A stretch of DNA of 38,680 nt from an uncultured Patescibacteria group bacterium (GTDB taxonomy: Bacteria; Patescibacteriota; Patescibacteriia; Veblenbacterales; UBA10138): positions 1-38,680 of the forward strand of contig CALFUV010000018.1 in NCBI GenBank assembly GCA_937929825.1, in the 5' to 3' direction. Under the pieces are notes generated by a model. The model worked only from the letters and a program-made list of their open reading frames with translations, did no database searches and was not told where the DNA came from. Each line of letters starts with the position of its first letter. Position 1 is the first letter of the stretch. The position numbers and the translations under genes were made by a program. This document shows positions 6,051 through 38,265 of this stretch, piece by piece.

Positions 6051-6067
6051 CTAAAAATATTAAGATC

Positions 6068-6096
6068 TTGACAAACTATAGGGGTCAGTATATTTT
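6068..6096 (+). promoter_or_regulatory. Candidate promoter TTGACA-N17-TATTTT upstream of greA
   Basis: Perfect -35 hexamer at 6068-6073. The -10-like hexamer at 6091-6096 matches TATAAT at 4/6. Confidence 0.3.
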
Positions 6097-6197
6097 AATA
6101 AGTAATAGTTATTATTTATCTCTCGTTTAGTTGTTTCTAAACGTGTGTATCTGGCTCGTAAACGGGCCAGCTTAATTTATTAAATTTTAGTTATTAT

Positions 6198-9436: not shown

Positions 9437-10063
9437 ATGCCAACAAAATTATTAATAGCTACTCACAATCAAGCAAAGTATGCGGAATTTTCAACCCTGC
9501 TTAGTAGATTTAATTTTGATTTAGTTTCATTAAAAGATATTGGTATTAGCCAAGAGGTAGCAGAGAATGAGCTGACATTTAAAGCTAATGCTGAAAATAA
9601 AGCTAAAATTTATTGTAAATTAAGCGGATTGCCAACTATTACTGATGATGGCGGTTTAGAAATTAAAGTTTTGGGTGGCTGGCCCGGTGTTTATTCCCGT
9701 CGTATTTGGGGCCCGCATAAACGATCAGGCACTGATGAAGAAATAATAAATGAAGTTTTAAAACGTTTACAAGGAGTACCTTTTGAGCAGAGAAAATGCC
9801 AATTTACTGCTGTAGTATCTTTGGCGGTTACACCAAACAGGGTTATTTCAGTTGAGGGCAAGGAAGATGGTTATATTGCCGAACAAGCCAGTGAACACAG
9901 GACCTCCGGTTTTCCTTTTCGCGCGCTTTTTTATTTGCCTAAATACGGAAAAATAGCGGCGGAATTGGATAAAAATGGCCGGCTGTCAGACTTTATGACA
10001 CATCGAAAACAGGCTATAATAAAACTTGAACCTTATTTAAAACAATTAATTAATTATGCTTAA
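9437..10063 (+). CDS. rdgB: Non-canonical purine NTP pyrophosphatase (Ham1/RdgB family)
   Basis: LLIATHNQAKYAEF N-terminus and TDDGGLEIKVLGGWPGVYSRR match the RdgB/ITPase signature. Strong Shine-Dalgarno (gaggaggagg) upstream. Confidence 0.75.
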   Translation: MPTKLLIATHNQAKYAEFSTLLSRFNFDLVSLKDIGISQEVAENELTFKANAENKAKIYCKLSGLPTITDDGGLEIKVLGGWPGVYSRRIWGPHKRSGTDEEIINEVLKRLQGVPFEQRKCQFTAVVSLAVTPNRVISVEGKEDGYIAEQASEHRTSGFPFRALFYLPKYGKIAAELDKNGRLSDFMTHRKQAIIKLEPYLKQLINYA

Positions 10064-12617: not shown

Positions 12618-13489
12618 TAAAAAATACCAAATCTCGTCGGCCTATTAGACGCCGTGATTTTGCTACCACTAGTTATGAGGCGCCTTTGGTGACAAAAAGA
12701 TTATCGCGGGCTTATCAAAAAAATCACCAGAAATCGTGGCGTTTTTGGTTAGTTATGTGCTCAATTTTCTTATTTAGCGGCTTAATAATCGGTTTTTTAT
12801 ATGCGCCTATTTTCAGTATAAAAAATATAATAATCAATAATGTAGGGTTTAAGCCAACGGAAGAGAGATTAAACCAGATATTAAATGACTATATGAAGAC
12901 TAGTCGATGGTATATATTTCCTCAGAAAAATCTGATTTTTTTCAGCCCTAGCGAAGCCCGTAAAATTTTATCTTCAGAATTTTATATTGAAGAGGTTGTT
13001 TTTAAAAAACATTGGCCTAACGTACTTAAAATTAATGTGGCTAAAAATGTGATAGTCGGTGTGTTTAAATCTGAAAATAGCAGTTTTTTGCTGGATAGGC
13101 GAGGCTTATTAGTACAGCAGGTTAATAATACTTTGGAAAATGATAAACGACTACCGGTGATAGTGGAAAAAAACGGATCGGCTAGAAGTTTGGGAGAAGC
13201 TGTTTTGGAGATAAATTTGGTTCAGTTTATTGATGATCTTTATGAGCTTTGGAATATCTCGTGGCCTGAAATGCCTTTTTTATATATTACAGTGGAAAAA
13301 AATTCTTTGCCAACCATGCAAATCAATATGCCTGAAGGTTGGTATGTTAATGTTACAGGAGAATCATCAGCTGTTGATCAGGTTAATAATCTAAAACGTT
13401 TGTTAGAAGAAAGAATAAAAGATGATAAATCAAAACTACAATATATTGATGTACGTTTTGGTAACCGTTTATATTTTAAACTAAAATAA
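12605..13489 (+). CDS. ftsQ: Cell division protein FtsQ/DivIB-like (cytoplasmic tail, one TM, POTRA-like region)
   Basis: Overlaps the ddl stop by 13 nt, matching the classic ddl-ftsQ order. Basic N-terminus and TM segment (FWLVMCSIFLFSGLIIGFL). Sequence similarity to FtsQ itself is weak. Confidence 0.55.
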   Translation: MVSLVKNTKSRRPIRRRDFATTSYEAPLVTKRLSRAYQKNHQKSWRFWLVMCSIFLFSGLIIGFLYAPIFSIKNIIINNVGFKPTEERLNQILNDYMKTSRWYIFPQKNLIFFSPSEARKILSSEFYIEEVVFKKHWPNVLKINVAKNVIVGVFKSENSSFLLDRRGLLVQQVNNTLENDKRLPVIVEKNGSARSLGEAVLEINLVQFIDDLYELWNISWPEMPFLYITVEKNSLPTMQINMPEGWYVNVTGESSAVDQVNNLKRLLEERIKDDKSKLQYIDVRFGNRLYFKLK

Positions 13490-13961
13490 TCTTATAAATA
13501 TTTTGCGACGCTTGAGCAATATAATATCTTTAGAGAATAATCAGAAATTAGAAACATAAATCAAAAATATTTGTATTGAAGAATTCTGAACTTAAAAATA
13601 AGTTTATTTTAATTTACAGCCAGTAACAGAAAATGATTGTATATTTGCTCAAACACAGTAAAATTAATTCAAATAAACAACTAATTAAACTAATAGCTAA
13701 AGAAGGAGCTTAAGAGTTTTTTATTTGTGTTAGTTAATTAATATGAGAGTTGATAATATTAAACTCTTAAAGAGTCTACGAGTCTACGATGAGGAATTTA
13801 TTTTAAACTAGAGGATTATCTAGATTTTAAAATTAGGTGTTGGGGTCATCAGGAGAATTAAATTAATTAAGTAAAAAGGCATATATTATTTTATTTGTGA
13901 ATTTGCTTTATTTTAAAGAATATGATAAACTGAGTATAATATCCCTTACACTCAATTAAAT

Positions 13962-14921
13962 ATGTCTCCAAAAAATCATCAAACCCCAGAGGTACTTCCC
14001 CATGTAGACGACTTTTTATTATTTTTACAAACCAATAATTATTCTCCGGAAACAGTTTATAATTATGAACGTGATCTAGGCGTTTTGGCTGATTTTATAA
14101 AAGATTTAGGAATAAGTTTTAATAGGCTGGATAAAAAACATATTGAACGATATAAAGCTTACCTTACCTCTCGAGATAGGCGTACTAATGCCCAACGCTT
14201 AACTGAAATTAGATTAAAAAGTTATTCTATTAATCGTATGCTTTCCAGTTTACGCGCCTTTTTACGTTATTTAATTGAATTGGATTATCCTACTCCCCTG
14301 CCGCCAGAAGCTGTTAAGCTGGTTAAAACAGAACGCAAACACCCTCAAGTAGCTGAATTACAAGAGTTGGTAAAATTAATTGAATCGCCAACAAGTTTGG
14401 AAAAAAATAAATTAATTGCCGCTCGTAACCGCGCTTGTTTGGAAGTTTTATTTGCTACCGGTATGCGTATTTCAGAACTTATTAATTTAAACAGGAGTCA
14501 AATTGACGCCACGGGCCGTATTTTTATTACCGGTAAGGGTAAAAAACAACGTTTTGTGTATTTAACTCCGCGAGCCATGAAACAGCTTGAATTTTATATT
14601 AAAACCCGTTTAGATAAATTACCGGCTCTTTTTATTCCTTATCGGGGTGAAAATGCCGGTAAGACTAATAAACGACTTTCCGCAAATTATTTACAAATGA
14701 AAATTAAACAGTATCGCGAACAATTAGGCATAAATGTACCTACCTCTGCTCACAGTTTACGTCATGGTTTTGCCACTTATTTAGCAGAGCAAGGAGCTAA
14801 TCCGGCAGCTATTCAAATTTTACTTGGTCATGAGTCTTTAGATACTACCACCCGTTATGTCCACGCTTCAGATCGTTATGCTGAATCAACTCACCATCAA
14901 TTTCATCCTTTAAAACAATAA
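13962..14921 (+). CDS. xerC: Tyrosine site-specific recombinase, XerC/XerD-like
   Basis: C-terminal catalytic signature HSLRHGFATYLAEQG...LLGHESLDTTTRYVH (R-H-R-Y family). 319 aa, N-terminal SAM-like core-binding domain. Confidence 0.8.
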   Translation: MSPKNHQTPEVLPHVDDFLLFLQTNNYSPETVYNYERDLGVLADFIKDLGISFNRLDKKHIERYKAYLTSRDRRTNAQRLTEIRLKSYSINRMLSSLRAFLRYLIELDYPTPLPPEAVKLVKTERKHPQVAELQELVKLIESPTSLEKNKLIAARNRACLEVLFATGMRISELINLNRSQIDATGRIFITGKGKKQRFVYLTPRAMKQLEFYIKTRLDKLPALFIPYRGENAGKTNKRLSANYLQMKIKQYREQLGINVPTSAHSLRHGFATYLAEQGANPAAIQILLGHESLDTTTRYVHASDRYAESTHHQFHPLKQ

Positions 14922-15076
14922 TTTAAGAAAAATATTTTAAGCAATCCCAATTTAACAAGTTAATTTGACATTTTTTTATTATTTAATTAAGGTAAGATGT
15001 TACAAATATTATAATATTTTGTAATTAAATAAATAACGTAAATTAACAATTTAACAAACAAAAGTAGGAGTAAAAA

Positions 15077-20307: not shown

Positions 20308-21342
20308 TTATTGGTTTACTGAAGAAATTATCTTTTTTAATTCTACCATAGCTAGTCTGCCTAAATCTCGTCGTACCGGAGAAATATGTTCCAATAGTTT
20401 AGTATAGTGAACCCATTTATAATAAGAGGCTTCTCTGGGATTTTGATTAATTTTTGGTCTGATTTCATTAACGCTAGCTACAGCTAAACTTTGTTCTTGG
20501 CCTATATAACCGTCTGGGTTAAGTCTTTTTAGCTGTCGCAAAAAATCTTTTGACCAACGATATTTATAAATTCTTTCTTTAATAATCAGCAGTTTAATAT
20601 TTTTTAAACCCACTTCTTCCAATACTTCACGTCTAGCGGCCTGAGCTAGGCTTTCGCCTTTTTCAATACCTCCTTGAGGAAATTGCCAATCCTTGGGATT
20701 ATGTTCCGAACTTCTAATAAGTAAAATCTCATTTTTGGGGTTTATTATACAAATAGCGATATTTGGTCGAAAACGACTTTTGTGGGCTGTAAATCGCAAA
20801 TTTAAAGCCATTAGACGCTTATAAATAGGCCCCTGAGGCGTTAAAGTACTTTGCATTAAACTAATTGTTTGCACAGGTATTTTGTATTTAAATGGTTTTA
20901 GTTGAGGCAAATCATTAGCTGACTGTGGTTGTTTAAGGCGTACCAAAGTTATATGTGCTGGTCTGGCAATAGCTGATAATTTCATTGATTTAATTTGAGC
21001 TGATAAATTTTGTTGTAACCTAGTAAATTCTGACGAAGACTTTATAGTTAAGGCGATAATTTTAGGTTGACGTTTTGGTATAAATTCAAATTGATGAGTT
21101 TCAAGATTAAAAGTTTGCCAATTAGTTAATACTTTAGTTAACATTTTTTTAAAATCATTTAAGATATAGGTTGGGATTTCACCAATAAAAACAACTGTCA
21201 AATGCCAATTATTCTCCTCTACCCATTTACCATTGAATTTATTTTTGAGTTGAAAAATAAGATTTGACAATTTTTTTCTTAATGAAATAGGCAGTTCAAT
21301 AGCAATAAAAATTCTCATGATTTCGATATTTAATTTTATCAT
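20308..21342 (-). CDS. Fusion protein: N-terminal 2H phosphoesterase (LigT/ThpR-like 2',5' RNA ligase / 2',3'-cyclic phosphodiesterase) plus C-terminal Nudix hydrolase. Probable true start is the internal Met at 21318 (MRIFIAIELP)
   Basis: Two H-x-T-x motifs (HLTVVF and HITLVR) define the 2H fold. A perfect Nudix box GGIEKGESLAQAARREVLEEVGL lies in the C-terminal half. Confidence 0.7.
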   Translation of the reverse strand: MIKLNIEIMRIFIAIELPISLRKKLSNLIFQLKNKFNGKWVEENNWHLTVVFIGEIPTYILNDFKKMLTKVLTNWQTFNLETHQFEFIPKRQPKIIALTIKSSSEFTRLQQNLSAQIKSMKLSAIARPAHITLVRLKQPQSANDLPQLKPFKYKIPVQTISLMQSTLTPQGPIYKRLMALNLRFTAHKSRFRPNIAICIINPKNEILLIRSSEHNPKDWQFPQGGIEKGESLAQAARREVLEEVGLKNIKLLIIKERIYKYRWSKDFLRQLKRLNPDGYIGQEQSLAVASVNEIRPKINQNPREASYYKWVHYTKLLEHISPVRRDLGRLAMVELKKIISSVNQ

Positions 21343-23561: not shown

Positions 23562-25397
23562 ATGGACAAAAATATCGTGCAAATAGCTATACTTAGAAAA
23601 TTACCCCGTTCTAAGGGAGTGTTTGATTATAAGACACCATTAGATTTAAAGGTTAAACTCGGTGATTTGGTTATGGCACCATTTAAAAGTGGTAATTATC
23701 CGGGTATTGTAGTTGGTATAGGTGCCAGTCCAAAAGCGCCTCAGAATCTACGTAGTATTAATTGTGTATTGAGTTCAGATTTTTTAAGAAAAGAAGAATT
23801 ATTTATGATGAGTTGGTTGGCCAAAAATAGCGGTGTGAGTCTAGGATTGGCGGGTAGTATGTTTGTACCATTTTTACCGACCAGTAAAAAGCCTTATAAT
23901 AATCGCCCTCAGCCTCTTGTGGTTCCAAAAAAGCTACAATCTCAGCCGATAATTGTAATACCAAAATCTTTGGAACACAAAAAAAAACTGGCATTGCAAC
24001 TGATTAATCAGGTTTTATTGCGGAGACAACAAATTTTGATATTGGTGCCGGAAGTATTTTATATACAATGGTGGCGAGATTTTATTAGTTCAACAAAAAA
24101 GGTGCAAGAGTTTTATAGTGGTCAGCAGTCAACTATAGCTCGTTTGACTTGGCTTGAGACTAGGGCCGGACAGGCAGATGTTATAATTGGTACTCGTGCA
24201 GCTTTGTGGCTACAATATCATAATCTAGGCGGTATTATAATTGATCAGGGTGAAAACGAAAATCATGTACAGTCAAACCAGAATCCCAGATATGATGCTG
24301 TTGAAGCGGCTCAGCAATTAGCAGGTGTTTGGCATAGTTCATTGGCTATATTTTCGTTTGCTCCGCGTTTGGAGCAGTGGCAAGCTAGTAATAATAAAAA
24401 ATTTCTCTGGCGTGAATTTATCTTGCCGATCAATAGGTTTAAAATAGTGAGCACTTTTGGCTTAAAAGTTCAACAAGGTTTGATAACGGATGAACTTCAA
24501 CAATTAGTGGAAAAAAGTTTGACTAATAAAGGACGGGTTTTATTGTACCTTAATAAGCGGGGAGCTCGCGGTTTTATATGCCAAGATTGTGGTTATCAGG
24601 CTCGATGTTCGCGTTGCTCCAGAACTATGATGGAATCTGATCATGATAGGTTAATGATTTGTTATCATTGTCAGGAAAAACAAAATATACCTCTCCCCTG
24701 CCCTAGTTGTCATGGTAATAGTTTTAGATATACCACCCGTGGTTTGGATGATCTTTATAAATCTGTTAATAATTTATGGCCCGAGGCTAAGGCTATTTTA
24801 TTGCAAGATAGTTTTGATTACTCAACTATTAATTTAGTTAAGAAAGCTAGATTAATAGTTGGCACGAGTACAGCTTGGAGAGTGTTGTATGGCCAAAATT
24901 TAGAATTAGCAGCTTTAGTCCGTGCAGATAATGAAATTAGCTTACCTGAATTTAGATCAGTAGAGAGAACTTGGCAATTATTGAGAAATTTATTAGTTAG
25001 CGCCAAAACAGTTGTTTGCCAAACAAGTTTGCCTAAACATCAACTATGGCAATATATTACTAGTTATAAAACGAACACTTTTTATCAAGCTGAATTAACA
25101 CAAAGAAAACTTTATCATTATCCGCCCGTAGTTAAAATATTACGACTGACTATAGAATCTTTAAATAATGAAACAGCAAAAAAAGAGGCTTTGGACCTTT
25201 TTTCCATAGTATCTAAAAATTTGCCCACTTCAGCCGAAGTTATTGGTCCATACCCAGATTACTATCAACGTCGTGGAAAAAAATGGCGTTGGCATATTTT
25301 ACTGAAATATCCTAATAATTGGCCGTTTGAGCAATTATGGTCACAGTTGCCTGATAATGTTATTATTGATCCACAGCCATATTTTATATTAAGCTAA
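23562..25397 (+). CDS. priA: PriA-like primosomal protein N' homologue with degenerate helicase motifs (no Walker A, and Walker B DEEH replaced by DQGE), but an intact N-terminal 3'-DNA-binding domain and Cys-rich zinc-binding region
   Basis: Collinear similarity to PriA. N-terminal segment VQIAILRKLPRSKGVFDYKTP...GDLVMAPFKSGNYPGIVVGI. Middle segment QILILVPEVFYIQWW...ADVIIGTRAALW...LGGIIIDQGE. Zinc region CQDCGYQARCSRCSRTMM...CYHCQEKQNIPLPCPSCHG. There is no GxGK[ST] anywhere in the 611 aa. Confidence 0.6.
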   Translation: MDKNIVQIAILRKLPRSKGVFDYKTPLDLKVKLGDLVMAPFKSGNYPGIVVGIGASPKAPQNLRSINCVLSSDFLRKEELFMMSWLAKNSGVSLGLAGSMFVPFLPTSKKPYNNRPQPLVVPKKLQSQPIIVIPKSLEHKKKLALQLINQVLLRRQQILILVPEVFYIQWWRDFISSTKKVQEFYSGQQSTIARLTWLETRAGQADVIIGTRAALWLQYHNLGGIIIDQGENENHVQSNQNPRYDAVEAAQQLAGVWHSSLAIFSFAPRLEQWQASNNKKFLWREFILPINRFKIVSTFGLKVQQGLITDELQQLVEKSLTNKGRVLLYLNKRGARGFICQDCGYQARCSRCSRTMMESDHDRLMICYHCQEKQNIPLPCPSCHGNSFRYTTRGLDDLYKSVNNLWPEAKAILLQDSFDYSTINLVKKARLIVGTSTAWRVLYGQNLELAALVRADNEISLPEFRSVERTWQLLRNLLVSAKTVVCQTSLPKHQLWQYITSYKTNTFYQAELTQRKLYHYPPVVKILRLTIESLNNETAKKEALDLFSIVSKNLPTSAEVIGPYPDYYQRRGKKWRWHILLKYPNNWPFEQLWSQLPDNVIIDPQPYFILS

Positions 25398-25405
25398 GAC
25401 CGTTT

Positions 25406-25888
25406 ATGCTTCCTCTTATAATTGCACCTAATAAAATTTTACGCACCGTCGTTAAATCTATTCAGTTGCCAGTAACAAATGATATAAAAAAATTGGCAGT
25501 TGAAATGTCTGAAACTATGTTTTATTATCACGGAATAGGCTTAGCTGGTCCTCAAGTTAACCGTGATGCTAGAATTATTGTTATTACTACTGCTGACGGG
25601 GTAAGTACTTATTTAAATCCGGAAATTATCAAAACTTCTTGGCGTCAGGTTGATATGGAAGAGGGGTGTTTATCTATCCCGGGTGTTTTTGGGCAAGTCC
25701 GCCGACCTCGACGTGTGTTAGCAAGTTTTTATACTTTAACCGGTGAACATCGCAAAGAATGGCTGGATAATATGCTGGCTAGAGTTTATCAGCATGAAGT
25801 TGATCACCTTAATGGTATTTTATTTACAGATAAAGCTTGGCGGATAAATCAAGGCCAAGATTTATTAGCGAAGTATGGTTTGGTCTGA
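25406..25888 (+). CDS. def: Peptide deformylase
   Basis: Three PDF motifs: GLAGPQV, EGCLSIPG and QHEVDHLNG. Confidence 0.9.
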   Translation: MLPLIIAPNKILRTVVKSIQLPVTNDIKKLAVEMSETMFYYHGIGLAGPQVNRDARIIVITTADGVSTYLNPEIIKTSWRQVDMEEGCLSIPGVFGQVRRPRRVLASFYTLTGEHRKEWLDNMLARVYQHEVDHLNGILFTDKAWRINQGQDLLAKYGLV

Positions 25889-26810
25889 AAAATTTGTTTT
25901 TTTTGGTTCACATGATTTTTCCAGGCGTATTTTAGCTGGTTTATTAGCCGGTGGCCAACAGCCGGCTTTAGTTATATCAACTATTAGCAAACCAAGTGGT
26001 AGAAAAAAAATAATTGAGCCCACACCGGTTGAAGTATTAGCAAAAAATGCTCAATTACCTTTTGTATCAATAAAAAGCTTCAAACAAAGTTATCCGCAGG
26101 AATTAACCCAAATACAGGCTAATTTTGCGATCTTAGCTGCTTTTAATCGTCTTTTGCCTAAGTCCTTATTACAGCTGTTTCCATTGGGAGTTATTAATGT
26201 TCATCCCTCATTATTACCACTTTATCGTGGACCATCCCCTATTCAGCAGGCTATTCTTGACGAGCAAGCTGTTACCGGCGTAACTTTAATAATTTTAGAT
26301 GAAGAAATGGATCATGGACCTATCATAGCTCAGGAACAATTGAGTCTTAATTATGACGATGCGCTAACTTTATTTATTCGGACAGCTGACTTAGCAGTTA
26401 ATATGCTTAAACTAATAGTACCTGATTATTTAGCAGGTAAAATTAAACCTCAAATCCAAGATCACAGCCGAGCTACTTATACCAGTTTAATTACTAAAAA
26501 ATCTGGTCAAGCTGATTTTTCTTGGCCAGCTAAAAAACTTGATAATATGCGTCGGGCTTATACTCCTTGGCCGGGGCTATGGACTACTTGGCAGGGCTCC
26601 ATTTTAAAATTTATTAAAACAACTGTTAGCACAGAAAAAAATATTAAACCGGGACAAGTTATTTGGTTAAATAATAGTTTACTGATTGGTTGTGGGCAAA
26701 ATACTGCTTTACAAATAATAGAATTGCAACAAGCTGGTGGCCGTCCTCAAACAGCCAAAGATTTTATAAACGGTCACCGCTCTTTTTTAAGAACAAGTTT
26801 ACCAAGTTAA
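25875..26810 (+). CDS. fmt: Methionyl-tRNA formyltransferase
   Basis: Overlaps def by 14 nt (classic def-fmt operon). NVHPSLLPLYRG formyltransferase motif. C-terminal Fmt domain. Confidence 0.85.
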   Translation: MVWSEKFVFFGSHDFSRRILAGLLAGGQQPALVISTISKPSGRKKIIEPTPVEVLAKNAQLPFVSIKSFKQSYPQELTQIQANFAILAAFNRLLPKSLLQLFPLGVINVHPSLLPLYRGPSPIQQAILDEQAVTGVTLIILDEEMDHGPIIAQEQLSLNYDDALTLFIRTADLAVNMLKLIVPDYLAGKIKPQIQDHSRATYTSLITKKSGQADFSWPAKKLDNMRRAYTPWPGLWTTWQGSILKFIKTTVSTEKNIKPGQVIWLNNSLLIGCGQNTALQIIELQQAGGRPQTAKDFINGHRSFLRTSLPS

Positions 26811-28344: not shown

Positions 28345-28800
28345 TTATTTATTTACATGAACCATTGGTTTTAAATACATAGCCAACAGCATAATCACTA
28401 AAAATATTAAAAAGCCCCAAACACAAGATGATACTCTGGTTAGGGCAAAAGTTTCCCAAAAGACAGGCCCTTTTTGAATAGCTGGTAAACAAAGTTCGCG
28501 CCAAGATACCCAGCCTGAAAAAATTACGCCAATAACAGCTGTCAACTTTAGCCAAATCAATAGTTTAGTTTGTTTCTTCAGCATTAATCCGCTAAGAATA
28601 GCTAGTAATATAAAAAGTGTTAAGCCGTATGGGCACGGAGTTAGACCCAATATTGATAAACCAACACAAGAAAAAATTCCTGGCTCTGTTGCTGGCGCTA
28701 TAATCTGTCTGATAGTAACAATGGCAGCAAAAATAACTCCAGTCACTGATAGGTAAAAAATTATTTTGAGAATTTTGAGATTCATAGAGTTAATAGACAA
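28345..28800 (-). CDS. Small polytopic membrane protein (about 4 TM, 151 aa), function unknown
   Basis: Hydrophobic profile. Overlaps the RuBisCO stop by 11 nt and directly precedes the GT2 gene, so it is probably co-transcribed with both. Confidence 0.5.
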   Translation of the reverse strand: MSINSMNLKILKIIFYLSVTGVIFAAIVTIRQIIAPATEPGIFSCVGLSILGLTPCPYGLTLFILLAILSGLMLKKQTKLLIWLKLTAVIGVIFSGWVSWRELCLPAIQKGPVFWETFALTRVSSCVWGFLIFLVIMLLAMYLKPMVHVNK

Positions 28801-30250
28801 TTTTTGGTTCAGTACCCCATAATTTTACAGCTTCAGCTAAAGCCGAGGAGGGATTTTTAGCCACATAGTCTTTAATACTCATGCCAGCCATTATAGCTTG
28901 TCTGGCTTCAATAGCGGCTTCTACCCCCTTTTCTGCTCCGCCGGGATGACCAAGCACGCCACCTCCTAATTGAATGAAAATATCCAAGCCGAGTTTTTGT
29001 ACTACAATATCCAAGACTCCGGGATGTAAGCCACCTGAAGCAACCGACCAAACAGGTTTGATATTGTACCATTTTTGACCTAAGGTATTAAGTTGTGGCT
29101 GAGCTGGAGTTTCATTTTGTCCTAAAGCCGCTGCGGTATTAACTTCTTCCTTTGTAATATGAAATTGACTATACGGATCATATCCATTTACTTCATCAGG
29201 ATTCATAGCAGCGTCTATAAGTTCACTTTCTCCGTAATCTTGCATTTTTGATTTTGGACTACCAATATGTAATGAATCTACGCCTAACAAACGGTAGATT
29301 TTTGCCAAAGCAAGCATGGAAACACTAAAACCCCACAAACTACCCTGCCCTCTTAAACCAGGGCCTGATTCACGAGTTATAAAACCATGCATGGCACGAT
29401 GAGCATGAATAAAAAGGCCGGGATTATTAAGACGCATACTATGAAGACTGGCAAAACCAGTAGTAACCACATCTATCATCATCACCCGTCCACCTTCTTG
29501 AGCTATAAGCTCTGCTCTTTGTTTCATAACTTCAATATCAGAATGAGTAATATTGCACAAATAAAGCTTTTTTTGACCAGTACGAGCTTCTATTTCCTGT
29601 TGTACAGCGTGTACTGCTCGACAGCGGTCTTCAAATTTATTAAAAGGGAGACTAGTCAGATTCTCATCGTCTTTAATAAAATCATAGCTACCATCTCCGG
29701 CTAACCATATTCGTCTTGCTAAAACTGCCTGTTCTTCAGCAGTGCGTCCTACCTTTGGTTTAGGTACAGTACCCATAATTGGTTTTTTATCATGGTGACC
29801 AAGCAATTTTCGCAAACCATCAATGCCAAATTGTGGTCCGGGAAATGATTCTACAAAAGGACGAGGAAACCTAATATCAAATATTCTCAGGCCTTGAATC
29901 ATTTTCATACCTGCAATATTACCAACAGGCCCGGCTAAAAAACCTGACATATTACCCGGTTCAAATAGATCAACACGGTAAGCAACTTTGAACATGTGAT
30001 CCTGTAAATTAAGATCAAAAACTATAGCTTTATAATCTTCTGCCCGGGCCATACCTGAATCCGGCCGTGATTCCACTTTTGTCCAAGTGCCGGTTGATGA
30101 TTCGGCCGCTACTGAAGCAGCTGCTTGGGGAAACATATTTTCACCCACACCCGGAGCCAGCTGAAGTTTAAAAAGAACTATTAAATATTTTTCATCTGAT
30201 TCGGGTGGTTGCCAGCCTGTTGGCGCTAAATAATCAAGTTGTACAGCCAT
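28790..30250 (-). CDS. rbcL: Ribulose-1,5-bisphosphate carboxylase/oxygenase large subunit, form III-like or II/III-like (archaeal or CPR type)
   Basis: Diagnostic RuBisCO active-site segments: AAESSTGTWT, GTVPKPKVG, DFIKDDENLTS (carbamylated Lys), HAHRAMHG, SGGLHPG, LGGGVLGHPGG. 486 aa with an extra segment between LHIGS and SGGLHPG compared with archaeal form III. Confidence 0.85.
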   Translation of the reverse strand: MAVQLDYLAPTGWQPPESDEKYLIVLFKLQLAPGVGENMFPQAAASVAAESSTGTWTKVESRPDSGMARAEDYKAIVFDLNLQDHMFKVAYRVDLFEPGNMSGFLAGPVGNIAGMKMIQGLRIFDIRFPRPFVESFPGPQFGIDGLRKLLGHHDKKPIMGTVPKPKVGRTAEEQAVLARRIWLAGDGSYDFIKDDENLTSLPFNKFEDRCRAVHAVQQEIEARTGQKKLYLCNITHSDIEVMKQRAELIAQEGGRVMMIDVVTTGFASLHSMRLNNPGLFIHAHRAMHGFITRESGPGLRGQGSLWGFSVSMLALAKIYRLLGVDSLHIGSPKSKMQDYGESELIDAAMNPDEVNGYDPYSQFHITKEEVNTAAALGQNETPAQPQLNTLGQKWYNIKPVWSVASGGLHPGVLDIVVQKLGLDIFIQLGGGVLGHPGGAEKGVEAAIEARQAIMAGMSIKDYVAKNPSSALAEAVKLWGTEPKIVY

Positions 30251-30253
30251 AGT

Positions 30254-30904
30254 TTAAGGTTGATTAATACTTATTTTTTTAATAATTATATCCTGTAAAG
30301 GATGATCATTAGCGTTAGTGGCTACAGATTCTATTTTATCTACCACTTCCATACCAGCTGATACGTAACCAAAATTAGTATGTTTGCCATCCAGCCACGG
30401 GGTAGCTTCAGCTGTCACAATAAAAAATTGACTACCATTAGTGTTTGGGCCGGCATTAGCCATAGCTACACTACCACGCACTAAAGGATGCTGATTAATT
30501 TCATCAGTAAAAGTATATCCCGGTCCGCCAGTGCCATCATCAGACCAATCGTCATCCTTGGAAAGCGGATCGCCAGTTTGTACCATAAAATTCTTGATAA
30601 CCCGATGAAATTTTACTCCGTCATAAAATCCGGCTGTAGCAAGTTTAATAAAATTTGCTACTGTCAATTCAGGTTCAGGATAAAAAATAATGGTAATATC
30701 TCCATAATTAGTGTGTAAGATAACAGACGTTGGTGCTGAGATCATAGGTATTTGACTGGTTGATTGGGTTAGCTGGTTATTTGCAGGTAATTTGGGTTGA
30801 GCTTCTATAAAATCCTGTTGGGTTGGTCGGACGTTTGGCGGTCTTAAAGAACAAGCTCCTAATAATATAGCACTTAAAATAAGAAAAGAAATTTTTTTAA
30901 CCAT
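30254..30904 (-). CDS. Cyclophilin-type peptidyl-prolyl cis-trans isomerase, predicted lipoprotein
   Basis: Lipobox LLGAC near the N-terminus. Cyclophilin motifs [14 protein letters not shown] and GSQFFIV. Confidence 0.8.
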
Positions 30905-30931: not shown

Positions 30932-31219
30932 TTAGTGATGATCTAAAAAAATACCAGACCGATGTTTATTTACGTAAATATATTGCCACCAGCGACCTGC
31001 TTGTCTGGCTCCCCATAAAGCTCCGCCAATAGTTAAGGTTATTACGAATAACTCATGAATCATAAACCATTGATTCCAACTCAAACCCCAGCCCCATAGG
31101 GCGTAGTTATTAAGTAATCGTGGAATATACCATAATTCAATCAAGGCATGTAATAAAAATCCGCTTAAACCACCAGCTGTTATAACTGCTAAATGATATA
31201 AAAATTTTTTTAATAACAT
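30932..31219 (-). CDS. Small membrane protein (95 aa, 2-3 TM, Trp-rich)
   Basis: ORF abuts the stop of the upstream 532-aa gene. Hydrophobic. Confidence 0.4.
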   Translation of the reverse strand: MLLKKFLYHLAVITAGGLSGFLLHALIELWYIPRLLNNYALWGWGLSWNQWFMIHELFVITLTIGGALWGARQAGRWWQYIYVNKHRSGIFLDHH

Positions 31220-32818
31220 TTACATCATTTCCTCTTTTTTCTCTTTTAAAAAATGGAACCAGTCTTCAATCACTCTTAAAATACTTTTAAAAGGAACTTC
31301 AAACATAAAATCAAGTATAAAAACAAAGAAGTTATAACGATCAAAAGTGTTTGATAGCCACTTACCTAAGGCAATAATGGGAAAAGAAAAGAAATCTAAA
31401 ATAAAAGAAGTAATAGTTTCCCTGCCTCTTACCACCTTAAGTTGTCTGGCTTGTTGGCGGAGATTGATGCCAAAAAAGCTGACTAAACTAACAAAGAAAA
31501 TAAAAAGTGCACCGGAAAGTACATTGAAATTAAGGCGCCACAATACAAAAATAATCGCGCTAAAAGAAACTAACATAGTTGCCGTATATAGTAGAGTGTA
31601 AAAAAGTTTGGTGAAAAAGTGAGGTCGACGAGGTAGGAGGCGCTGATTGGCATAAAAACTGTAATCTTGTTCGTAAACAATTTCTTTTACACCTTCTAAA
31701 ATTTTTTCTTCATTAGATTTATCCGGCGATTTTATCAATAAAGTTATAATCATCATTAAAAGCGGAGGAAAAAGCAGGTTTATACCCAGAGGAATATAAC
31801 TTATTTTTCCTAAAATCAGATGCTCATAAGGTAATTCAATAAGTATGGCCAATAATATTTTGGTTATAAAAATATAAGTCATAGCATGAAACCCCTTGCG
31901 CCGTAACCTTTTTCTGGTTGATAACCAATAAGATTGGTATGTTTCTCTGGCAGCTTGTTCCAGTTTCTGAGGATTGCGTATTAATTCTTCCGTTCTTGTG
32001 GGGTTATTAATGATAGTTTGGCGTAAAATAACAATTGGTACCAGCCAGCGTTTAATTAAGGGTATAAGTCGTTTGCCTAAAATATGGTTTTGTAAAGAGT
32101 TAAATTCGTTTAAAATACTCTCAAAACGGGGAGCAAGATACTCAACAGCTTCATTTTCTGGGGTATTAAACCAAGGAGCATGATAATGCAGCAGTAAATA
32201 ATAATTTAAAATATCACGATCAGCTCTATTTAAAATTCTTTCAATATTCAGTACTAATTGAACATTTTGCTGGTCAGTAGATTCTGATAGGGCCGATAAA
32301 TCCAAAGCCGGTTTGATTATTTTAGTTGCCAAATTTGTGAAGGCTGTGCGCGCTCGTGGTGAAACAATAGTGTTATCACATTCCACTGCCGCTAAACCAA
32401 TAAGTTGTTCTCGCCAACGAGGAACCCGACAACCTAAAAGTTTAATTTTATTAAAAAGTGTATAATATTTTTTAATAATATTGTTAAGGTCTGGTATTAA
32501 AGCTTCATCAATTTCATCATTAGGTAAATAACGCGATAATACCAGCTCCCGCAACAAATCAGCACCTAAAGAAGAGGTTGGATTAAATTGCGGTAATAAA
32601 AATTTTCTTTTTAAAAATCGTCTGATGGCATTTTTCCTTAACAGATTTTCTTCTTTGTAGTCCACAATATTTCTAAGTTTTTCATAGGCAAAAGCCGGCA
32701 AGCTAGTAATTTCTGAAACATGAATAGGTCTTTCTGCCGGACGATTAATTTCATCTTGGTAAAGCTGTAAACTAGCCAGCAGTTCATTGATTTTTTCAGA
32801 GGGAATAGCGTGAGGCAT
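31220..32818 (-). CDS. Hypothetical protein (532 aa): about 320-aa soluble N-terminal part plus 4-5 C-terminal TM helices
   Basis: Long ORF with no recognisable motifs. Confidence 0.5.
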   Translation of the reverse strand: MPHAIPSEKINELLASLQLYQDEINRPAERPIHVSEITSLPAFAYEKLRNIVDYKEENLLRKNAIRRFLKRKFLLPQFNPTSSLGADLLRELVLSRYLPNDEIDEALIPDLNNIIKKYYTLFNKIKLLGCRVPRWREQLIGLAAVECDNTIVSPRARTAFTNLATKIIKPALDLSALSESTDQQNVQLVLNIERILNRADRDILNYYLLLHYHAPWFNTPENEAVEYLAPRFESILNEFNSLQNHILGKRLIPLIKRWLVPIVILRQTIINNPTRTEELIRNPQKLEQAARETYQSYWLSTRKRLRRKGFHAMTYIFITKILLAILIELPYEHLILGKISYIPLGINLLFPPLLMMIITLLIKSPDKSNEEKILEGVKEIVYEQDYSFYANQRLLPRRPHFFTKLFYTLLYTATMLVSFSAIIFVLWRLNFNVLSGALFIFFVSLVSFFGINLRQQARQLKVVRGRETITSFILDFFSFPIIALGKWLSNTFDRYNFFVFILDFMFEVPFKSILRVIEDWFHFLKEKKEEMM

Positions 32819-32892
32819 GTTTATAGTATTTTTTAAAAAGTTTAATATGTAAAACGGTCATAGTTTAGCAAAATAGAACGAAAGAATCAAGC

Positions 32893-34221
32893 CTACAATC
32901 CAGTTTGATAGCCGGCTAAATGAAGAGAACTATCATAAAAATGTTTATATACTAATCTGAATTTAGCTACATAATAAGCTGTTTCTGAGCGTAAACTTGA
33001 AGATATATTTCCGTGATATTTATCCCAAGCCTCTCCCCAATTTTTGATAGCCCTTCTAACTCTGGTGGGCCCACCGTTATACATAGCTGCCATAAGAGCA
33101 CCTAAATTATAATTATCGGCGACGTATTTTTCTCTAGTTTCTTTGGGTAGTAAGGTGAGATTATAATCTAGTAAACCTATTTGAGCTTTAATAGCGTTAT
33201 AAGGATCTGTCATACCTTGCACAAAATCTGGGTGTAGAGTAAGATCAGGTCTTATTTTTCGTAAATTATGGTAAGTACTTGGTATAAATTGTACTAGTCC
33301 ACGAGCTGAAGATTGTGAGCGTGCGTAAGCATATGACCTATGTTCATTAGCAGCCAAAGTGGCATAAAATCGCCTAAGATAAGAATCAGCCGAGTTGTTT
33401 AAAAGCACTGAAGCCTCAACATGTTCAATGGCAATAATAGTTTTAACTGTAGCTTGATCAATAACTTTAGTGATTAACTCTCTTGGTCGGGCTCGTGAAG
33501 TTATTTTAAGCTGTTCCAATTCCTGATACACAGCTTGGACTTTATTATTTAAATAATTTTTACCAGCTTGAACTAATATCGGGTGATCAAATTTTGTTGA
33601 GTAAGGAATATAAACTACGTTTTCTAGTTTAAATTTAGTTTGTTTTCCATCGCTAATGTCTGCGAATACTGGATGGATAAGACCTAAAACCATTAGATCT
33701 CGACGGTTGGTGACTTCAATTACACTATTTACACCATTATTACGTAGTAGTTTGAATTTGTAATTACTGGTATTTATAGGTGTAATAGTCTGATCGTTTT
33801 TTATAACTCGTACCAAATCAAATTCATTTTTTTCATAATTCCACAAACCAAGCACAAGTTCTAGGGGTATATTGCGAGAAGTAACTACGCGCGGTTTATA
33901 ATTTGGATCAAGTTCCTGACTATCAACTTGCTCCTGCAACAATTTTTTAATCTCCTGAATAGCCTGATAAATCTTTTGTCCGTCAATCTCTTTTTCGGGT
34001 TGAGTTGGAGTTGTTTCTTCTTCAGAGGACCATTGCCAAAAAGTTGTCAATGGAGTGGAGCCTAAAGTATTTTCCTGAGCTCTGGCGGGTAAAAAAACGA
34101 TTCCCAATAAGCCAATAACTAATGTTCCAGCTAGGGCAAAAAAGACTTTTTTCATTATATTTATTATAGCAAATTTGACAGAATTTGAATAATAATTACT
34201 GTCAAGTAGTTTAAACTTCAA
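32893..34221 (-). CDS. Secreted or membrane-anchored protein with C-terminal SLT-like lytic transglycosylase motifs
   Basis: N-terminal hydrophobic anchor. The C-terminal region carries GLVQFIPSTY (GLMQ-like) and MAAMYNGGPTRV (AYNAG-like) motifs. Confidence 0.4.
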   Translation of the reverse strand: MKFKLLDSNYYSNSVKFAIINIMKKVFFALAGTLVIGLLGIVFLPARAQENTLGSTPLTTFWQWSSEEETTPTQPEKEIDGQKIYQAIQEIKKLLQEQVDSQELDPNYKPRVVTSRNIPLELVLGLWNYEKNEFDLVRVIKNDQTITPINTSNYKFKLLRNNGVNSVIEVTNRRDLMVLGLIHPVFADISDGKQTKFKLENVVYIPYSTKFDHPILVQAGKNYLNNKVQAVYQELEQLKITSRARPRELITKVIDQATVKTIIAIEHVEASVLLNNSADSYLRRFYATLAANEHRSYAYARSQSSARGLVQFIPSTYHNLRKIRPDLTLHPDFVQGMTDPYNAIKAQIGLLDYNLTLLPKETREKYVADNYNLGALMAAMYNGGPTRVRRAIKNWGEAWDKYHGNISSSLRSETAYYVAKFRLVYKHFYDSSLHLAGYQTGL

Positions 34222-35617
34222 AAGATTGCCCTACTTCAGGCAAAAAGACTTGCCAGTTGGCGTTATATTGTCGTAAATTGGTTTGCAAAATAGAAGCTTG
34301 CTCGATTTCACCGTGAACCAAAAAAATATTTTTTAAATTTTTTACAGAAGCAGCATAATCAAATAAAGCCAAGGAGTCGGCATGAGCACTAAATTCATTT
34401 AATACTTCAATACGCGCACGCACTTTAAAATATTGTCCAAAAATTCGCACATTTTTAGCACCTTCTACCAGACGACGGCCAAGGGTATGTTTAGCTTGAA
34501 AACCAGTTATGAGGATTATATTTCTTTCATCCTCAATATTGTTAATTAAATGATGAAGTATACGCCCAGCTTCGCACATGCCTGAAGCAGAAATAATTAT
34601 AAAAGGCCCCGGTTTGTGATTTAAATTTTTTGATTCTTCACGAGTTTCGGTATAAGTAAGATTACGGAAGGATAAGGGTAAATCGCCACGTTTACCAAAA
34701 TCTTCCCAAGACTCTTCATCATAAGTTTCTGGGTGTTTGGCAAAAACTTCTGTTAAATTTGTGGCCAAAGGACTATCCACATAAATATCAAGTCGGGGAA
34801 TTTTTTTAGAATCAGTCAATTGATGTAAAACGTAAACCAGTTCTTGTGTGCGTCCTAAGGCAAAAGTGGGCACAATAATTTTGCCACCTTTTTGATAAAT
34901 ATCATTTACGATATTTCTTAATTTTTCCACTGCTTCAGTTAAAGAACGGTGTTGACGTGCGCCATAAGTTGATTCCAATAACAAAGTTTCCACTTCATCT
35001 TTAATACTTTCCGGATCAGGAATTAAAGGTGTGCCACTACGTCCTAAGTCACCGGTGTAAGCCACTCGTTTAATTTTTCCTTTATTATTTATTTCTAATA
35101 CAGTTACTGCAGAACCCATAATATGTCCAGCATCATAAAATTTAAGCCGTAGACCGGGTGCTAGTTGAAACCATTCTCCGCTTAGACGAACATAAGGAAC
35201 CTCCACAAAGCGAGATATTACTTCATCAACATCATCTTGATTAAAAAGTGGTTGGGCTAATTCAGCACCTTCTATTCTATGACGATTCATATAATCAGCA
35301 TCCATTTGTTGAATATGTGCGGCGTCTTTTAATATCCAAGCTGTTACATCACGGGTGGCAGCTGTAGCATAAATTCGTCCTTTATAACCGGATTTAATTA
35401 GTAAAGGTAAACTGCCACAGTGATCAAGATGACCGTGAGATAATATAACAGCTGTAATTTTGGAGGCTTCGAAAGGTAGTTGGCTATTCATTTCTCGCGT
35501 TATTTTACGACTGCCTTGAAATACTCCACAATCCATTAAAATATGATGGTTATCAGCTTCTAATAAATGTTTGGCGCCGGTTACTCCACTAACGCCACCA
35601 TAGAAAGTTAGTTTCAT
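34211..35617 (-). CDS. Metallo-beta-lactamase / beta-CASP ribonuclease (RNase J-like, short form)
   Basis: HxHxDH motif (ILSHGHLDHCG), MBL fold followed by a beta-CASP region (…YTGDLG…LLESTYG…), 468 aa. Confidence 0.7.
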   Translation of the reverse strand: MKLTFYGGVSGVTGAKHLLEADNHHILMDCGVFQGSRKITREMNSQLPFEASKITAVILSHGHLDHCGSLPLLIKSGYKGRIYATAATRDVTAWILKDAAHIQQMDADYMNRHRIEGAELAQPLFNQDDVDEVISRFVEVPYVRLSGEWFQLAPGLRLKFYDAGHIMGSAVTVLEINNKGKIKRVAYTGDLGRSGTPLIPDPESIKDEVETLLLESTYGARQHRSLTEAVEKLRNIVNDIYQKGGKIIVPTFALGRTQELVYVLHQLTDSKKIPRLDIYVDSPLATNLTEVFAKHPETYDEESWEDFGKRGDLPLSFRNLTYTETREESKNLNHKPGPFIIISASGMCEAGRILHHLINNIEDERNIILITGFQAKHTLGRRLVEGAKNVRIFGQYFKVRARIEVLNEFSAHADSLALFDYAASVKNLKNIFLVHGEIEQASILQTNLRQYNANWQVFLPEVGQSFEV

Positions 35618-35921
35618 ATTGATATTGATTAAATATTTTTTATTATACCATAATCACACTTTAAATTATTTATTGATTATAAAAAATCAAAGGAAAGATT
35701 TTAATCAAACTCTCTTACTAATCTAATTTAATAAAAAGACGGTTTTATTCGCTTAGGAGCGAAAACTATGACTTTACTTATCGTTAAAGAAAATAAAATT
35801 GGCTATAAATTTTGTTTATTATAGCTTTACAATAGTCAATCTTCCCCACAGAGCAAGAATTATTTTCCCCCGAATCATTTTTCTTTTTTACTCTCCCCCA
35901 ATAAAATTTTCGTATTCACTG

Positions 35922-35992
35922 CTGGGGGAGATGGATTCGAACCATCATAACCACCTCCAAAGGGTGGTGTCCTACCATTAGACGATCCCCCA
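35922..35992 (-). tRNA. tRNA-Gln (anticodon UUG); CCA not encoded
   Basis: Cloverleaf folded by hand on the reverse complement. U1-A72 acceptor pair, D-stem GUCU/GGAC, anticodon stem CCACC/GGUGG with loop CUUUGGA, T-arm GAUGG-UUCGAAU-CCAUC, discriminator G. Confidence 0.8.
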
Positions 35993-38178: not shown

Positions 38179-38191
38179 CGACTGCTTAAAG

Positions 38192-38265
38192 CGGGATTAG
38201 TACAATGGCAGTATGCAAGCTTCCCAAGCTTGAGACGCGGGTTCGATTCCCGTATCCCGCTCCAG
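38192..38265 (+). tRNA. tRNA-Gly (anticodon CCC) with encoded 3' CCA
   Basis: Hand-folded cloverleaf. Acceptor GCGGGAU/AUCCCGC, D-arm GUAC-AAUGGCA-GUAU, anticodon arm CAAGC-UUCCCAA-GCUUG, T-arm GCGGG-UUCGAUU-CCCGU, discriminator U, then CCA. Confidence 0.85.

Follow-up and report, generated by a model that had tools for sequence, protein, structure and literature searches.

The window analysed here, a whole contig of 38,680 nucleotides (38.7 kb), comes from one of the Patescibacteria (Parcubacteria) whose closest named relatives are Veblenbacteria and Kerfeldbacteria. The best overall explanation for what it encodes, and one that we consider likely, is that its rbcL gene specifies a competent form III-like RuBisCO working in nucleoside salvage, and that the genes next to it are incidental to this function. 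For the most part this is an ordinary finding, a further member of a RuBisCO clade that was described between 2016 and 2019 and sampled biochemically in 2026. The gene neighbourhood, which at first sight had the appearance of an odd operon, dissolves when it is compared with the same region in relatives. The features discussed are collected in Table 1.

Table 1. Location of the features discussed, in positions of the window.
Feature	Coordinates	Strand	Basis or remarks
rbcL, form III-like RuBisCO large subunit (RbcL), 486 aa	28790..30250	minus	Pfam, PDB, fold, NJ tree
Subclade-specific alpha6-beta7 insertion, residues 346-372, DAAMNPDEVNGYDPYSQFHITKEEVNT	29135..29215	minus	Alignments and translation
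Clade-wide insertion of ~11 aa, residues 296-306, GPGLRGQGSLW, after the HRAMH block	29333..29365	minus	Alignment
Lipoprotein cyclophilin-type peptidyl-prolyl isomerase (PPIase), 216 aa	30254..30904	minus	PF00160 (Pro_isomerase), E 2.4e-46
Small 4-TM protein (smallTM), 146 aa from ATG	28345..28785	minus	Alternative TTG start at 28800
Membrane GT2 glycosyltransferase, 509 aa	26807..28336	minus	DID 206, TED 297, QQRRW 343
Upstream backbone: 95-aa TM ORF, 532-aa membrane protein, SLT-domain protein, beta-CASP/RMMBL nuclease	30932..35617	minus	Pfam
Downstream backbone: priA, def, fmt, converging on GT2	23562..26810	plus	Pfam

The 486-aa ORF matched both Pfam families of the RuBisCO large subunit (PF02788 and PF00016), RuBisCO_large with an E of 2.6e-57 and RuBisCO_large_N with an E of 9.8e-26. 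An earlier note on this DNA had read in the ORF every active-site block that it quoted, and all of these motifs were found: KPKVG at residue 164, DFIKDDENLTS at 190, HAHRAMHG at 282, LHIGS at 327, SGGLHPG at 405 and LGGGVLGHPGG at 428. No small-subunit gene was found near rbcL. The best matches in the PDB were archaeal form III enzymes (E from about 1e-84 to 1e-86), and the AF2 model of RbcL, with a pLDDT of 85.8, had the T. kodakarensis structure 3a12 as its top fold match (TM 0.81/0.89).

In RuBisCO, following the spinach numbering, the carbamylated lysine is Lys201 and the metal ligands are Asp203 and Glu204; other diagnostic residues are Lys175, Lys177, His294, Arg295, His298, His327, Lys334, Ser379, Gly380/381 and Gly403/404. 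When RbcL was aligned with Thermococcus form III and cyanobacterial form I enzymes, all the catalytic and substrate-binding positions checked proved to be conserved, namely E50, T55, W56, N111, K164, K166, K193 (equivalent to K201), D195, E196, H284, R285, H288, H328, K335, S405-G407 and G429-G431. Among them, the positions equivalent to the diagnostic spinach residues (K193, D195, E196, K164, K166, H284, R285, H288, H328, K335, S405, G406, G407, G429 and G430) are identical in both reference enzymes. Across 30 clade members these active-site residues are invariant, with the exception of G430, which is conserved in at least 90%. The L335 position is occupied by methionine, as in other form III-like enzymes, and the T173 column by valine, as in Thermococcus. 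The loss of catalytic residues, which had been named as the mark of a RuBisCO-like protein, was not seen, and the earlier reading of the gene as a true RuBisCO was confirmed on the alignment.

We nevertheless weighed whether the gene is decaying or codes for a RuBisCO-like protein whose function is not that of a carboxylase (for example an enolase or isomerase of sulfur or sugar-acid metabolism). The TIGR03326 model (rubisco_III) gave 387.1 bits, under its equivalog cutoff of 497.45 for type III RuBisCO, in two stretches with an insertion between them; moreover, there are two insertions near loop 6, and the AF2 model is of low confidence at residues 334-362. However, K193 (the lysine that is carbamylated), the metal ligands D195 and E196 and the loop-6 K335 do not vary in the 30 clade members, the models of RuBisCO-like proteins and decarboxylases score 130-168 bits, far below TIGR03326, and the ORF is intact, with homologues 73-82% identical over the full length. 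With the active site conserved and such low scores for the competing models, this candidate was rejected, and we regard it as extremely improbable. The TIGR03326 score below the cutoff fits instead a distinct sister clade, and speaks against a canonical form III-b enzyme. Judged from its sequence, the 486-aa protein is a bona fide RuBisCO and is predicted to be catalytically competent, from which we infer carboxylase activity in vivo.

RbcL belongs to the published form III-like clade of CPR and DPANN organisms and, within it, to the insertion-bearing subclade of 484-486 aa. In an NJ tree, built without bootstrap and leaving out form II and II/III references, it grouped with sequences of Veblenbacteria, Kerfeldbacteria, Gottesmanbacteria, Dojkabacteria and DPANN and with VDD89010, apart from the form III of Thermococcus/Archaeoglobus and from form I. 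The identity was 79% to KKS74941 of Veblenbacteria, 77% to MBI5465798 of Kerfeldbacteria (labelled 'III-Like' in PMC13454268), 65% to VDD89010, whose record name is 'RuBisCO long chain, Form III-like', and between 61 and 66% to members from Gottesmanbacteria; the range of 73-82% mentioned above refers to the members of 484-486 aa. The sequence is new, in that nothing in the searched databases exceeds 82% identity to it, and it comes from a relative with lower GC (~37%). The earlier note had proposed an enzyme of the CPR type, which agrees with this grouping among published CPR form III-like sequences, but its assignment to form II/III or III-b had to be abandoned. RbcL lies inside the form III-like clade, and it scored 286-294 bits against form III-b structures compared with 212 bits against the form II/III enzyme of M. 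burtonii (5mac). With form III-like enzymes as its closest named relatives, the form II/III candidate was also rejected.

The roughly 25 extra residues that had been noticed between the LHIGS and SGGLHPG blocks are real. From H328 to S405 there are 77 residues in RbcL and 53 in the archaeal form III 8dht, a net gain of 24 aa, which is also found with respect to the form III-like enzymes of 457-462 aa. In the AF2 model this alpha6-beta7 insertion is a low-confidence loop that is followed by a confident helix (367-377). It is already known and not new: the RuBisCO of Parcubacteria OD1-1 has insertions of 8 aa and 24 aa between alpha6 and beta7, confirmed by PCR (Wrighton 2016, PMC5113843). According to that published description, the insertion of RbcL lies at the site of the 24-aa one, and it is also carried by Parcubacteria homologues from the Rifle aquifer (KKS74941 and others). 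The second insertion, of about 11 aa, had been overlooked in the earlier note. Of 30 form III-like sequences, 29 carry it, and it is missing in Thermococcus form III-b and cyanobacterial form I, and an insertion of this length has been described as characteristic of form III-like RuBisCO (Jaffe 2019, PMC6389311). It is probably the beta-sheet-forming insertion that a 2026 survey presents as common to the clade of P. syntrophicum and to form III-like enzymes.

The immediate neighbours of rbcL are those that had been recognized before: on one side a lipoprotein cyclophilin, with its PF00160 domain and a lipobox LGAC at residues 15-18, and on the other a small membrane protein followed by a GT2 of the QxxRW type, in which the three expected motifs are present. 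The small protein, in which C40, C51 and C121 are invariant, is VKOR-like and belongs, as a divergent case, to the VKOR superfamily; the match to Pfam PF07884 together with a CXXC in TM4, by which the family is defined, was not found, and the protein has no CXXC motif. It comes from a narrow family, in which no more than 4 clusters fall below an E of 1e-30. The GT2 gene lies outside the span covered by the earlier note (28345-30904). TM segments lie towards both its N- and its C-terminus, PF13632 is precomputed on its homologues, and its motifs are those of processive (cellulose/chitin-synthase-like) enzymes, of which it is a putative member; the CelA models of NCBIfam match it weakly (E 1.6e-5). 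More than 7,000 homologues of this GT2 exist over many CPR phyla, a far wider spread than that of RuBisCO.

As had been stated, these genes are co-directional, with tiny gaps of 3, 4 and 8 nt. The 11-nt overlap that had been reported between rbcL and the small membrane ORF depends on the TTG at 28800 being the start; the ATG at 28785 lies 4 nt past the RuBisCO stop. The public gene call is of 146 aa (P0140) and the homologues align from about the same point, so that a 4-nt gap is the more likely junction. The tight spacing had also been taken as the sign of a genuine operon, which it does not support: throughout the window, which is 92% coding, co-directional genes are separated by a median of 7.5 nt. 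Tiny gaps are thus generic in this tightly packed genome, and they say little on functional coupling. Promoter-like sites (44, against 38±5 in shuffled sequence) and terminator-like sites (5, against 8.5±3) showed no excess, and are therefore uninformative on operon boundaries. Co-transcription of rbcL with its neighbours is probable, simply from the tight packing.

The comparison with relatives showed that the gene order beta-CASP-SLT-532aa-PPIase-(slot)-GT2-fmt-def-priA is kept, also without RuBisCO. The upstream part, in which the 532-aa protein has no family match and SLT stands for a lytic transglycosylase domain, is colinear in L083, L084, L113-L118, L120, L123 and L124, and the downstream part in L082, L083, L113, L116-L118, L122 and L123. 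The position of the cyclophilin is unchanged in relatives with and without RuBisCO. L081-L083 and L115-L117 likewise have PPIase-rbcL-smallTM-GT2 in this order, as do L084 and L120 with additional genes, and in this respect the arrangement is conserved, a point that had been left for checking. However, PPIase-smallTM-GT2 is contiguous without rbcL in L113 and L123, PPIase-GT2 in L124, and the slot has other contents in L114, L118 and L125. The context is consequently not the unusual one that it had been taken for: the cyclophilin, the small TM protein and the GT2 form a conserved envelope/housekeeping backbone and are not partners of RuBisCO. Only for the small TM protein may there be a looser association with rbcL, given its narrow family and its location downstream of rbcL in the RuBisCO-bearing backbone loci where this could be read (in L084 and L120 with a PycTM-like gene between).

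A functional operon of RuBisCO, small membrane protein and GT2, in which the synthesis of a surface glycan would be supplied or controlled by, for instance, 3-PGA or a RuBisCO side product, would agree with the co-directional genes, with their gaps of 3-8 nt without a predicted terminator between them, and with the recurrence of the four-gene order. The loci in which the same neighbours are found without rbcL largely refute it. Furthermore, the GT2 is kept in many CPR phyla that have RuBisCO only sparsely, a sister RuBisCO in locus L001 has none of these neighbours (PPIase, smallTM or GT2), and the tight spacing extends over the whole window. We know of no chemistry that connects RuBisCO and GT2. 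For these reasons a functional coupling of RuBisCO to GT2 was rejected as very improbable. The interval between cyclophilin and GT2 is rather a variable slot, with rbcL as one alternative occupant. Most parsimoniously, rbcL would have entered it by an old insertion that was followed by repeated loss or replacement, a history of gain and loss drawn from about 15 loci that were not placed on a species tree.

Another aspect to mention is the content of this slot in L114, where an overlapping gene pair for a class II aldolase and a HAD protein is found at the place that rbcL occupies in the window and in L083, L084, L115-L117 and L120. The GT2 of L114 is 83% identical to that of the rbcL-bearing L084, and the PPIase genes of the two loci are about 79% identical in nucleotides up to the stop codon. 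The best NCBIfam match of the HAD protein is RuBP 5-phosphatase (E 2e-48; 165 bits, where the cutoff is 330); the family match of the aldolase is weak and non-specific (E ~1e-6). Elsewhere among 122 loci the only counterpart was the remote HAD of L001 (25% identity), and in three further loci neither an aldolase nor a HAD matched the pair. In haloarchaea, a RuBP 5-phosphatase of the HAD type and the Ru1P aldolase FucA act in a pentose bisphosphate pathway that does not carboxylate, and fucA and a HAD hydrolase gene are located in one operon (Sato 2022, PMC9700705). The pair of L114 resembles that system in having the aldolase and HAD genes together and in the best match of its HAD; it differs in that the HAD score is below the cutoff, the aldolase match is weak and there is a single instance, and the pair is absent from the window. 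No bacterial case of this pathway was documented in the literature searched. It is conceivable, although we find it rather doubtful, that the cyclophilin-GT2 interval is a hotspot where sibling Patescibacteria swap alternative RuBP-consuming modules. If this were true, the pair of L114 would replace RuBisCO in situ and the slot would be functionally tied to the disposal of RuBP. The occurrence of either RuBisCO or a FucA-like aldolase plus HAD in the same slot of close relatives is a hint that CPR may switch between carboxylating and non-carboxylating disposal of RuBP.

Regarding the pathway, neither AMP phosphorylase nor R15P isomerase was found by Pfam and profile searches in the window, in agreement with the earlier note. 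The AMP-pathway genes deoA and e2b2 accompanied RuBisCO in all the RuBisCO-bearing CPR genomes studied (Wrighton 2016, PMC5113843). In addition, co-location of AMP-pathway genes with RuBisCO is more frequent and closer for form III-c than for the other forms, and it is for form III-c that consecutive or fused genes have been described (Jaffe 2019, PMC6389311); the lack of these genes beside rbcL is therefore unremarkable. A sister locus, L001/L085, whose RbcL is 74% identical and of the same subclade, has the consecutive genes e2b2-rbcL-HAD-deoA. Its e2b2 matches PF01008 (E 9e-57) and TIGR00511 (184 bits), and its deoA the AMP phosphorylase model TIGR03327 (555 bits, above its cutoff of 535). 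This cluster supports a nucleoside-salvage role for the insertion-bearing form III-like subclade and strengthens that assignment. For the present organism we infer the same role. AMP phosphorylase would convert AMP to ribose-1,5-bisphosphate and R15P isomerase would convert this to RuBP, with the genes for both located elsewhere in the genome. RbcL would then, most likely, carboxylate the RuBP derived from nucleotides or nucleosides to two 3-phosphoglycerate for fermentation.

RbcL could also work with a phosphoribulokinase (PRK), in a CBB-like or partial route that regenerates RuBP, and not in the AMP/nucleoside pathway. PRK homologues (PF00485, E 8e-41) adjoin a form III-like rbcL in L002, L092, L094, L096 and L101, and PRK has been reported in Gottesmanbacteria with form III-like enzymes (Jaffe 2019, PMC6389311). 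However, those loci represent a subclade of 462 aa, 62-64% identical to RbcL and distinct from the one with the insertion; the window itself contains no PRK, and the nearest informative relative, L001, carries e2b2 and deoA. We consider this route unlikely, and nucleoside salvage remains the preferred role.

Among the known systems, the form III(-b) enzyme of T. kodakarensis (1geh/3a12) has the closest solved structure (E ~5e-84, 36-37% identity, with the TM values given above). Its catalytic residues are identical, and it is presumed to be alike in its role in the AMP or pentose bisphosphate pathway; RbcL nevertheless lies in a separate deep clade, with two insertions that are absent there. 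In T. kodakarensis the enzyme assembles as a decamer, (L2)5, whereas the Kerfeldbacteria enzyme that is 77% identical to RbcL is among the dimers in the 2026 SEC-SAXS survey. In that study this homologue was purified, and its solubility, SEC-SAXS and Tm are given; kcat was measured for seven enzymes that the text consulted does not name, and no carboxylase assay of this subclade is reported in it (PMC13454268). The shift from L2 to L10 appears there only in RAD-bearing II-III enzymes, which places the Kerfeldbacteria III-like enzyme with the dimers. The RAD of the M. burtonii form II/III enzyme (Gunn 2017, PMC5399129) occupies the same topological site, alpha6-beta7, with 26-30 aa there and 24-27 aa here. 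It is a loop-helix-loop, and the RbcL model similarly shows a loop and then a helix; the two insertions are likened by site and size only, and the bit scores mentioned above set the enzymes in different clades. Finally, RbcL shares with the form III-like RuBisCO of CPR and DPANN (PMC5113843, PMC6389311) the clade, both insertions, the active site and the lack of a small-subunit gene, and from its main counterparts, the subclade of Parcubacteria OD1-1, Veblenbacteria and Kerfeldbacteria, it has no substantive difference.

The 486-aa product of rbcL in the window is a bona fide RuBisCO. Conservation extends to every canonical catalytic and substrate-binding position; across 30 clade members all of these are invariant except G430 (conserved in at least 90%). 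The RuBisCO motifs quoted in the earlier note were all present, and the alignment revealed no lost catalytic residue. The AlphaFold model (pLDDT 85.8, pTM 0.89) superposed best on the type III RuBisCO of T. kodakarensis (TM 0.81/0.89). Since these positions are conserved and the fold matches type III, identity as a RuBisCO-like protein was rejected. The RuBisCO-like NCBIfam models scored 130-168 bits, and the type III model 387 bits, below its equivalog cutoff of 497 bits. The best relatives of solved structure were archaeal form III enzymes (8dht, 2cwx, 6hun and T. kodakarensis 1geh; E 1e-84 to 1e-86, 286-294 bits); M. burtonii form II/III (5mac) gave 212 bits and form I ~190 bits.

The closest database proteins are from Patescibacteria (484-486 aa, 73-82% identical), among them Veblenbacteria/Parcubacteria GW2011 proteins (KKS74941 and others, 79%) and Kerfeldbacteria MBI5465798.1 (77%). 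A second group (457-463 aa, 61-66%) includes Gottesmanbacteria proteins and VDD89010, named in the database "RuBisCO long chain, Form III-like". In a neighbour-joining tree without bootstrap, made with archaeal form III and form I from the fetched loci and without form II or II/III references, the window RuBisCO grouped with the 484-486 aa sequences, a subclade of the form III-like clade. By this placement the label "form III-like" was right, but the tree and the closest proteins show that the suggested form II/III or III-b assignment was wrong in detail. The window RuBisCO is a new sequence within a clade already known.

Compared with forms III-b and I, the protein has two insertions, both already published (Jaffe 2019, PMC6389311, for the first; Wrighton 2016, PMC5113843, for the second). 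GPGLRGQGSLW (residues 296-306) is common to nearly the whole form III-like clade, and DAAMNPDEVNGYDPYSQFHITKEEVNT (residues 346-372, net +24), between alpha6 and beta7, is confined to the 484-486 aa subclade; there the model has a low-confidence loop and then a confident helix (367-377). The extra residues noticed between LHIGS and SGGLHPG are real. The alpha6-beta7 insertion lies at the same site as the Rubisco assembly domain (RAD) of M. burtonii form II/III. In a 2026 Nat Commun survey (PMC13454268), a Kerfeldbacteria enzyme 77% identical to the window RuBisCO was purified (Tm 68.7 °C), and all enzymes were dimers except one of form II and two of form II-III that bear RAD; the Kerfeldbacteria enzyme, not being one of these three, is by exclusion a dimer.

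The ORF map confirmed the cluster of four co-directional genes, and Pfam its RuBisCO and cyclophilin, apart from a small correction of an overlap; the GT2 of the cluster falls outside the span first assigned to it (28345-30904). The 11-nt overlap of rbcL with the small membrane ORF exists given a TTG start, but a 4-nt gap is likelier, since an alternative ATG lies 4 nt past the RuBisCO stop, the public gene call (P0140) has 146 aa and homologues align from about that point.

Features of the window and of the compared loci (PPIase, lipoprotein cyclophilin; smallTM, small 4-TM protein gene; slot, PPIase-GT2 interval)
Feature	Location	Strand	Remarks
Cyclophilin, 216 aa	30254-30904	minus	ORF map; Pfam Pro_isomerase E 2.4e-46
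RuBisCO large subunit, 486 aa	28790-30250	minus	ORF map; Pfam RuBisCO_large_N E 9.8e-26, RuBisCO_large E 2.6e-57
Small membrane ORF	28345-28800	minus	ORF map
Small 4-TM VKOR-superfamily protein (the small membrane ORF from its ATG)	28345-28785	minus	C40, C51, C121 invariant
GT2-like protein, 509 aa	26807-28336	minus	ORF map
HD-domain protein	8835-9392		
ITPase (Ham1)	9437-10063		
Lowest-GC stretch	13000-15000		GC 0.285 at 13001-14000; 472-nt ORF-free gap, then recombinase gene
XerC/D-type tyrosine recombinase	13962-14921		
SPFH/Band 7 domain protein, 829 aa	15077-17566		Next after recombinase gene
LigT/2'-5' RNA ligase-like phosphoesterase (N-terminal) fused to NUDIX (C-terminal)	20308-21342	minus	
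tRNA-Gln(UUG)	35921-35992	minus	In 497-nt gap upstream of rbcL-containing minus-strand gene run
tRNA-Gly(CCC)	38191-38264	plus	Overlaps two 90-aa ORFs; these ORFs are therefore probably spurious
Slot: rbcL - smallTM	window, L082, L083, L115-L117, L081		L081 ends at GT2
Slot: 453-aa ORF - rbcL - PycTM-like - smallTM	L084		
Slot: rbcL - PycTM-like - smallTM - Zip	L120		
Slot: smallTM alone, without rbcL	L113, L123		
Slot: empty	L124		
Slot: PycTM-like - Zip	L125		
Slot: Zip, without PPIase	L118		
Slot: class II aldolase - HAD - PycTM-like	L114		Aldolase + HAD, 5081-6408
PycTM-like copies	L084:11470-11934, L114:6405-6869, L120:5301-5768, L125:151-624		69-78% identical between loci
e2b2 - rbcL - HAD hydrolase - deoA	L001:9031-13590		Four consecutive genes

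The gene content of the window is that of ordinary CPR housekeeping DNA (aminoacyl-tRNA synthetases, MreB/MreC/PBP2, GreA, Ddl, PriA, def, fmt, FtsEX); it is 92% coding, with a median co-directional gap of 7.5 nt (10 nt or less in 17 of 30). Predicted promoters and terminators were no commoner in it than in shuffled sequence. When the neighbourhood was compared across 125 fetched loci, a block was found to be conserved in related Patescibacteria: beta-CASP nuclease, SLT, a 532-aa membrane protein, PPIase, the slot and GT2, completed by fmt, def and priA on the opposite strand. Only the slot varies. As the block is conserved with and without rbcL, the neighbours form a backbone whose variable slot carries rbcL as cargo; this, together with the tight packing, explains the neighbourhood that had been considered non-canonical. 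The RuBisCO-membrane-GT2 order does recur in relatives, but smallTM and GT2 also stand together without rbcL in two loci. GT2 identity to the window is 66-70% in rbcL-less loci, equal to several rbcL-bearing ones, and homologues of the GT2 number more than 7,000 in many CPR phyla; RuBisCO, by contrast, is sparse in CPR. A PycTM-like membrane protein (Pycsar effector family, PF18967; 154-157 aa) is a recurrent slot occupant.

The small membrane protein belongs to the VKOR superfamily as a divergent member with a narrow family of its own, and it lacks the CXXC motif. In relatives without rbcL its gene directly follows the cyclophilin gene, which suggests that the two form an envelope protein-folding pair.

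None of deoA (AMP phosphorylase), e2b2 (R15P isomerase) and PRK (phosphoribulokinase) is encoded within the 38,680 nt, which make up the whole contig, and annotation thus bears out the earlier remark that the first two are missing there. Elsewhere, the neighbours of form III-like rbcL differ from lineage to lineage. In Gottesmanbacteria, NadD-NadE precede rbcL and a gene of the inositol-monophosphatase family follows it. In five loci (L002, L092, L094, L096, L101), PRK-family genes (PF00485, E 8e-41) lie directly downstream and convergent to an rbcL encoding a 462-aa form III-like RuBisCO, matching the association reported for Gottesmanbacteria (Jaffe 2019, PMC6389311). The most informative locus is L001/L085, on one contig (JBAZOT010000010.1) of Patescibacteria SO_2017_SWC_12, whose RuBisCO is 74% identical to the window's and of the same insertion-bearing subclade. 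Its rbcL stands between e2b2 (PF01008 E 9e-57; TIGR00511 184 bits, below that model's cutoff) and HAD and deoA genes (deoA: TIGR03327, 555 bits against a cutoff of 535). A TrwB/TraG-like coupling-protein gene directly upstream hints at a mobile context for this cluster. Both deoA and e2b2 occurred in all RuBisCO-bearing CPR genomes studied by Wrighton 2016 (PMC5113843), and among the RuBisCO forms, co-location of the AMP-pathway trio is commonest and tightest for form III-c, for which consecutive or fused genes have been described (Jaffe 2019, PMC6389311). Taken together, the L001 cluster and both studies make AMP/nucleoside salvage the best-supported role that we infer for the window organism: its RuBisCO would carboxylate RuBP within this route, with deoA and e2b2 presumably encoded outside the window, elsewhere in the genome.

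In one locus (L114, Logan SRR12313480_168861) an overlapping class II aldolase and HAD hydrolase pair, with no RuBisCO, occupies exactly the place of rbcL. The GT2 proteins of L114 and of the rbcL-bearing L084 share 83% identity, and the PPIase genes of these two loci match at ~79% nucleotide identity as far as the stop codon and diverge beyond it. The best NCBIfam match of the HAD was the haloarchaeal ribulose-1,5-bisphosphate 5-phosphatase (E 2e-48, 165 bits against a cutoff of 330), and the family matches of the aldolase were weak and non-specific. In its make-up the aldolase and HAD pair is similar to the operon in which haloarchaea encode FucA and a HAD for their non-carboxylating pentose bisphosphate pathway. 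An in-situ swap of RuBP-consuming modules, RuBisCO for a non-carboxylating one, may have taken place, judging from this single locus and its sub-threshold scores, but we consider it unlikely.
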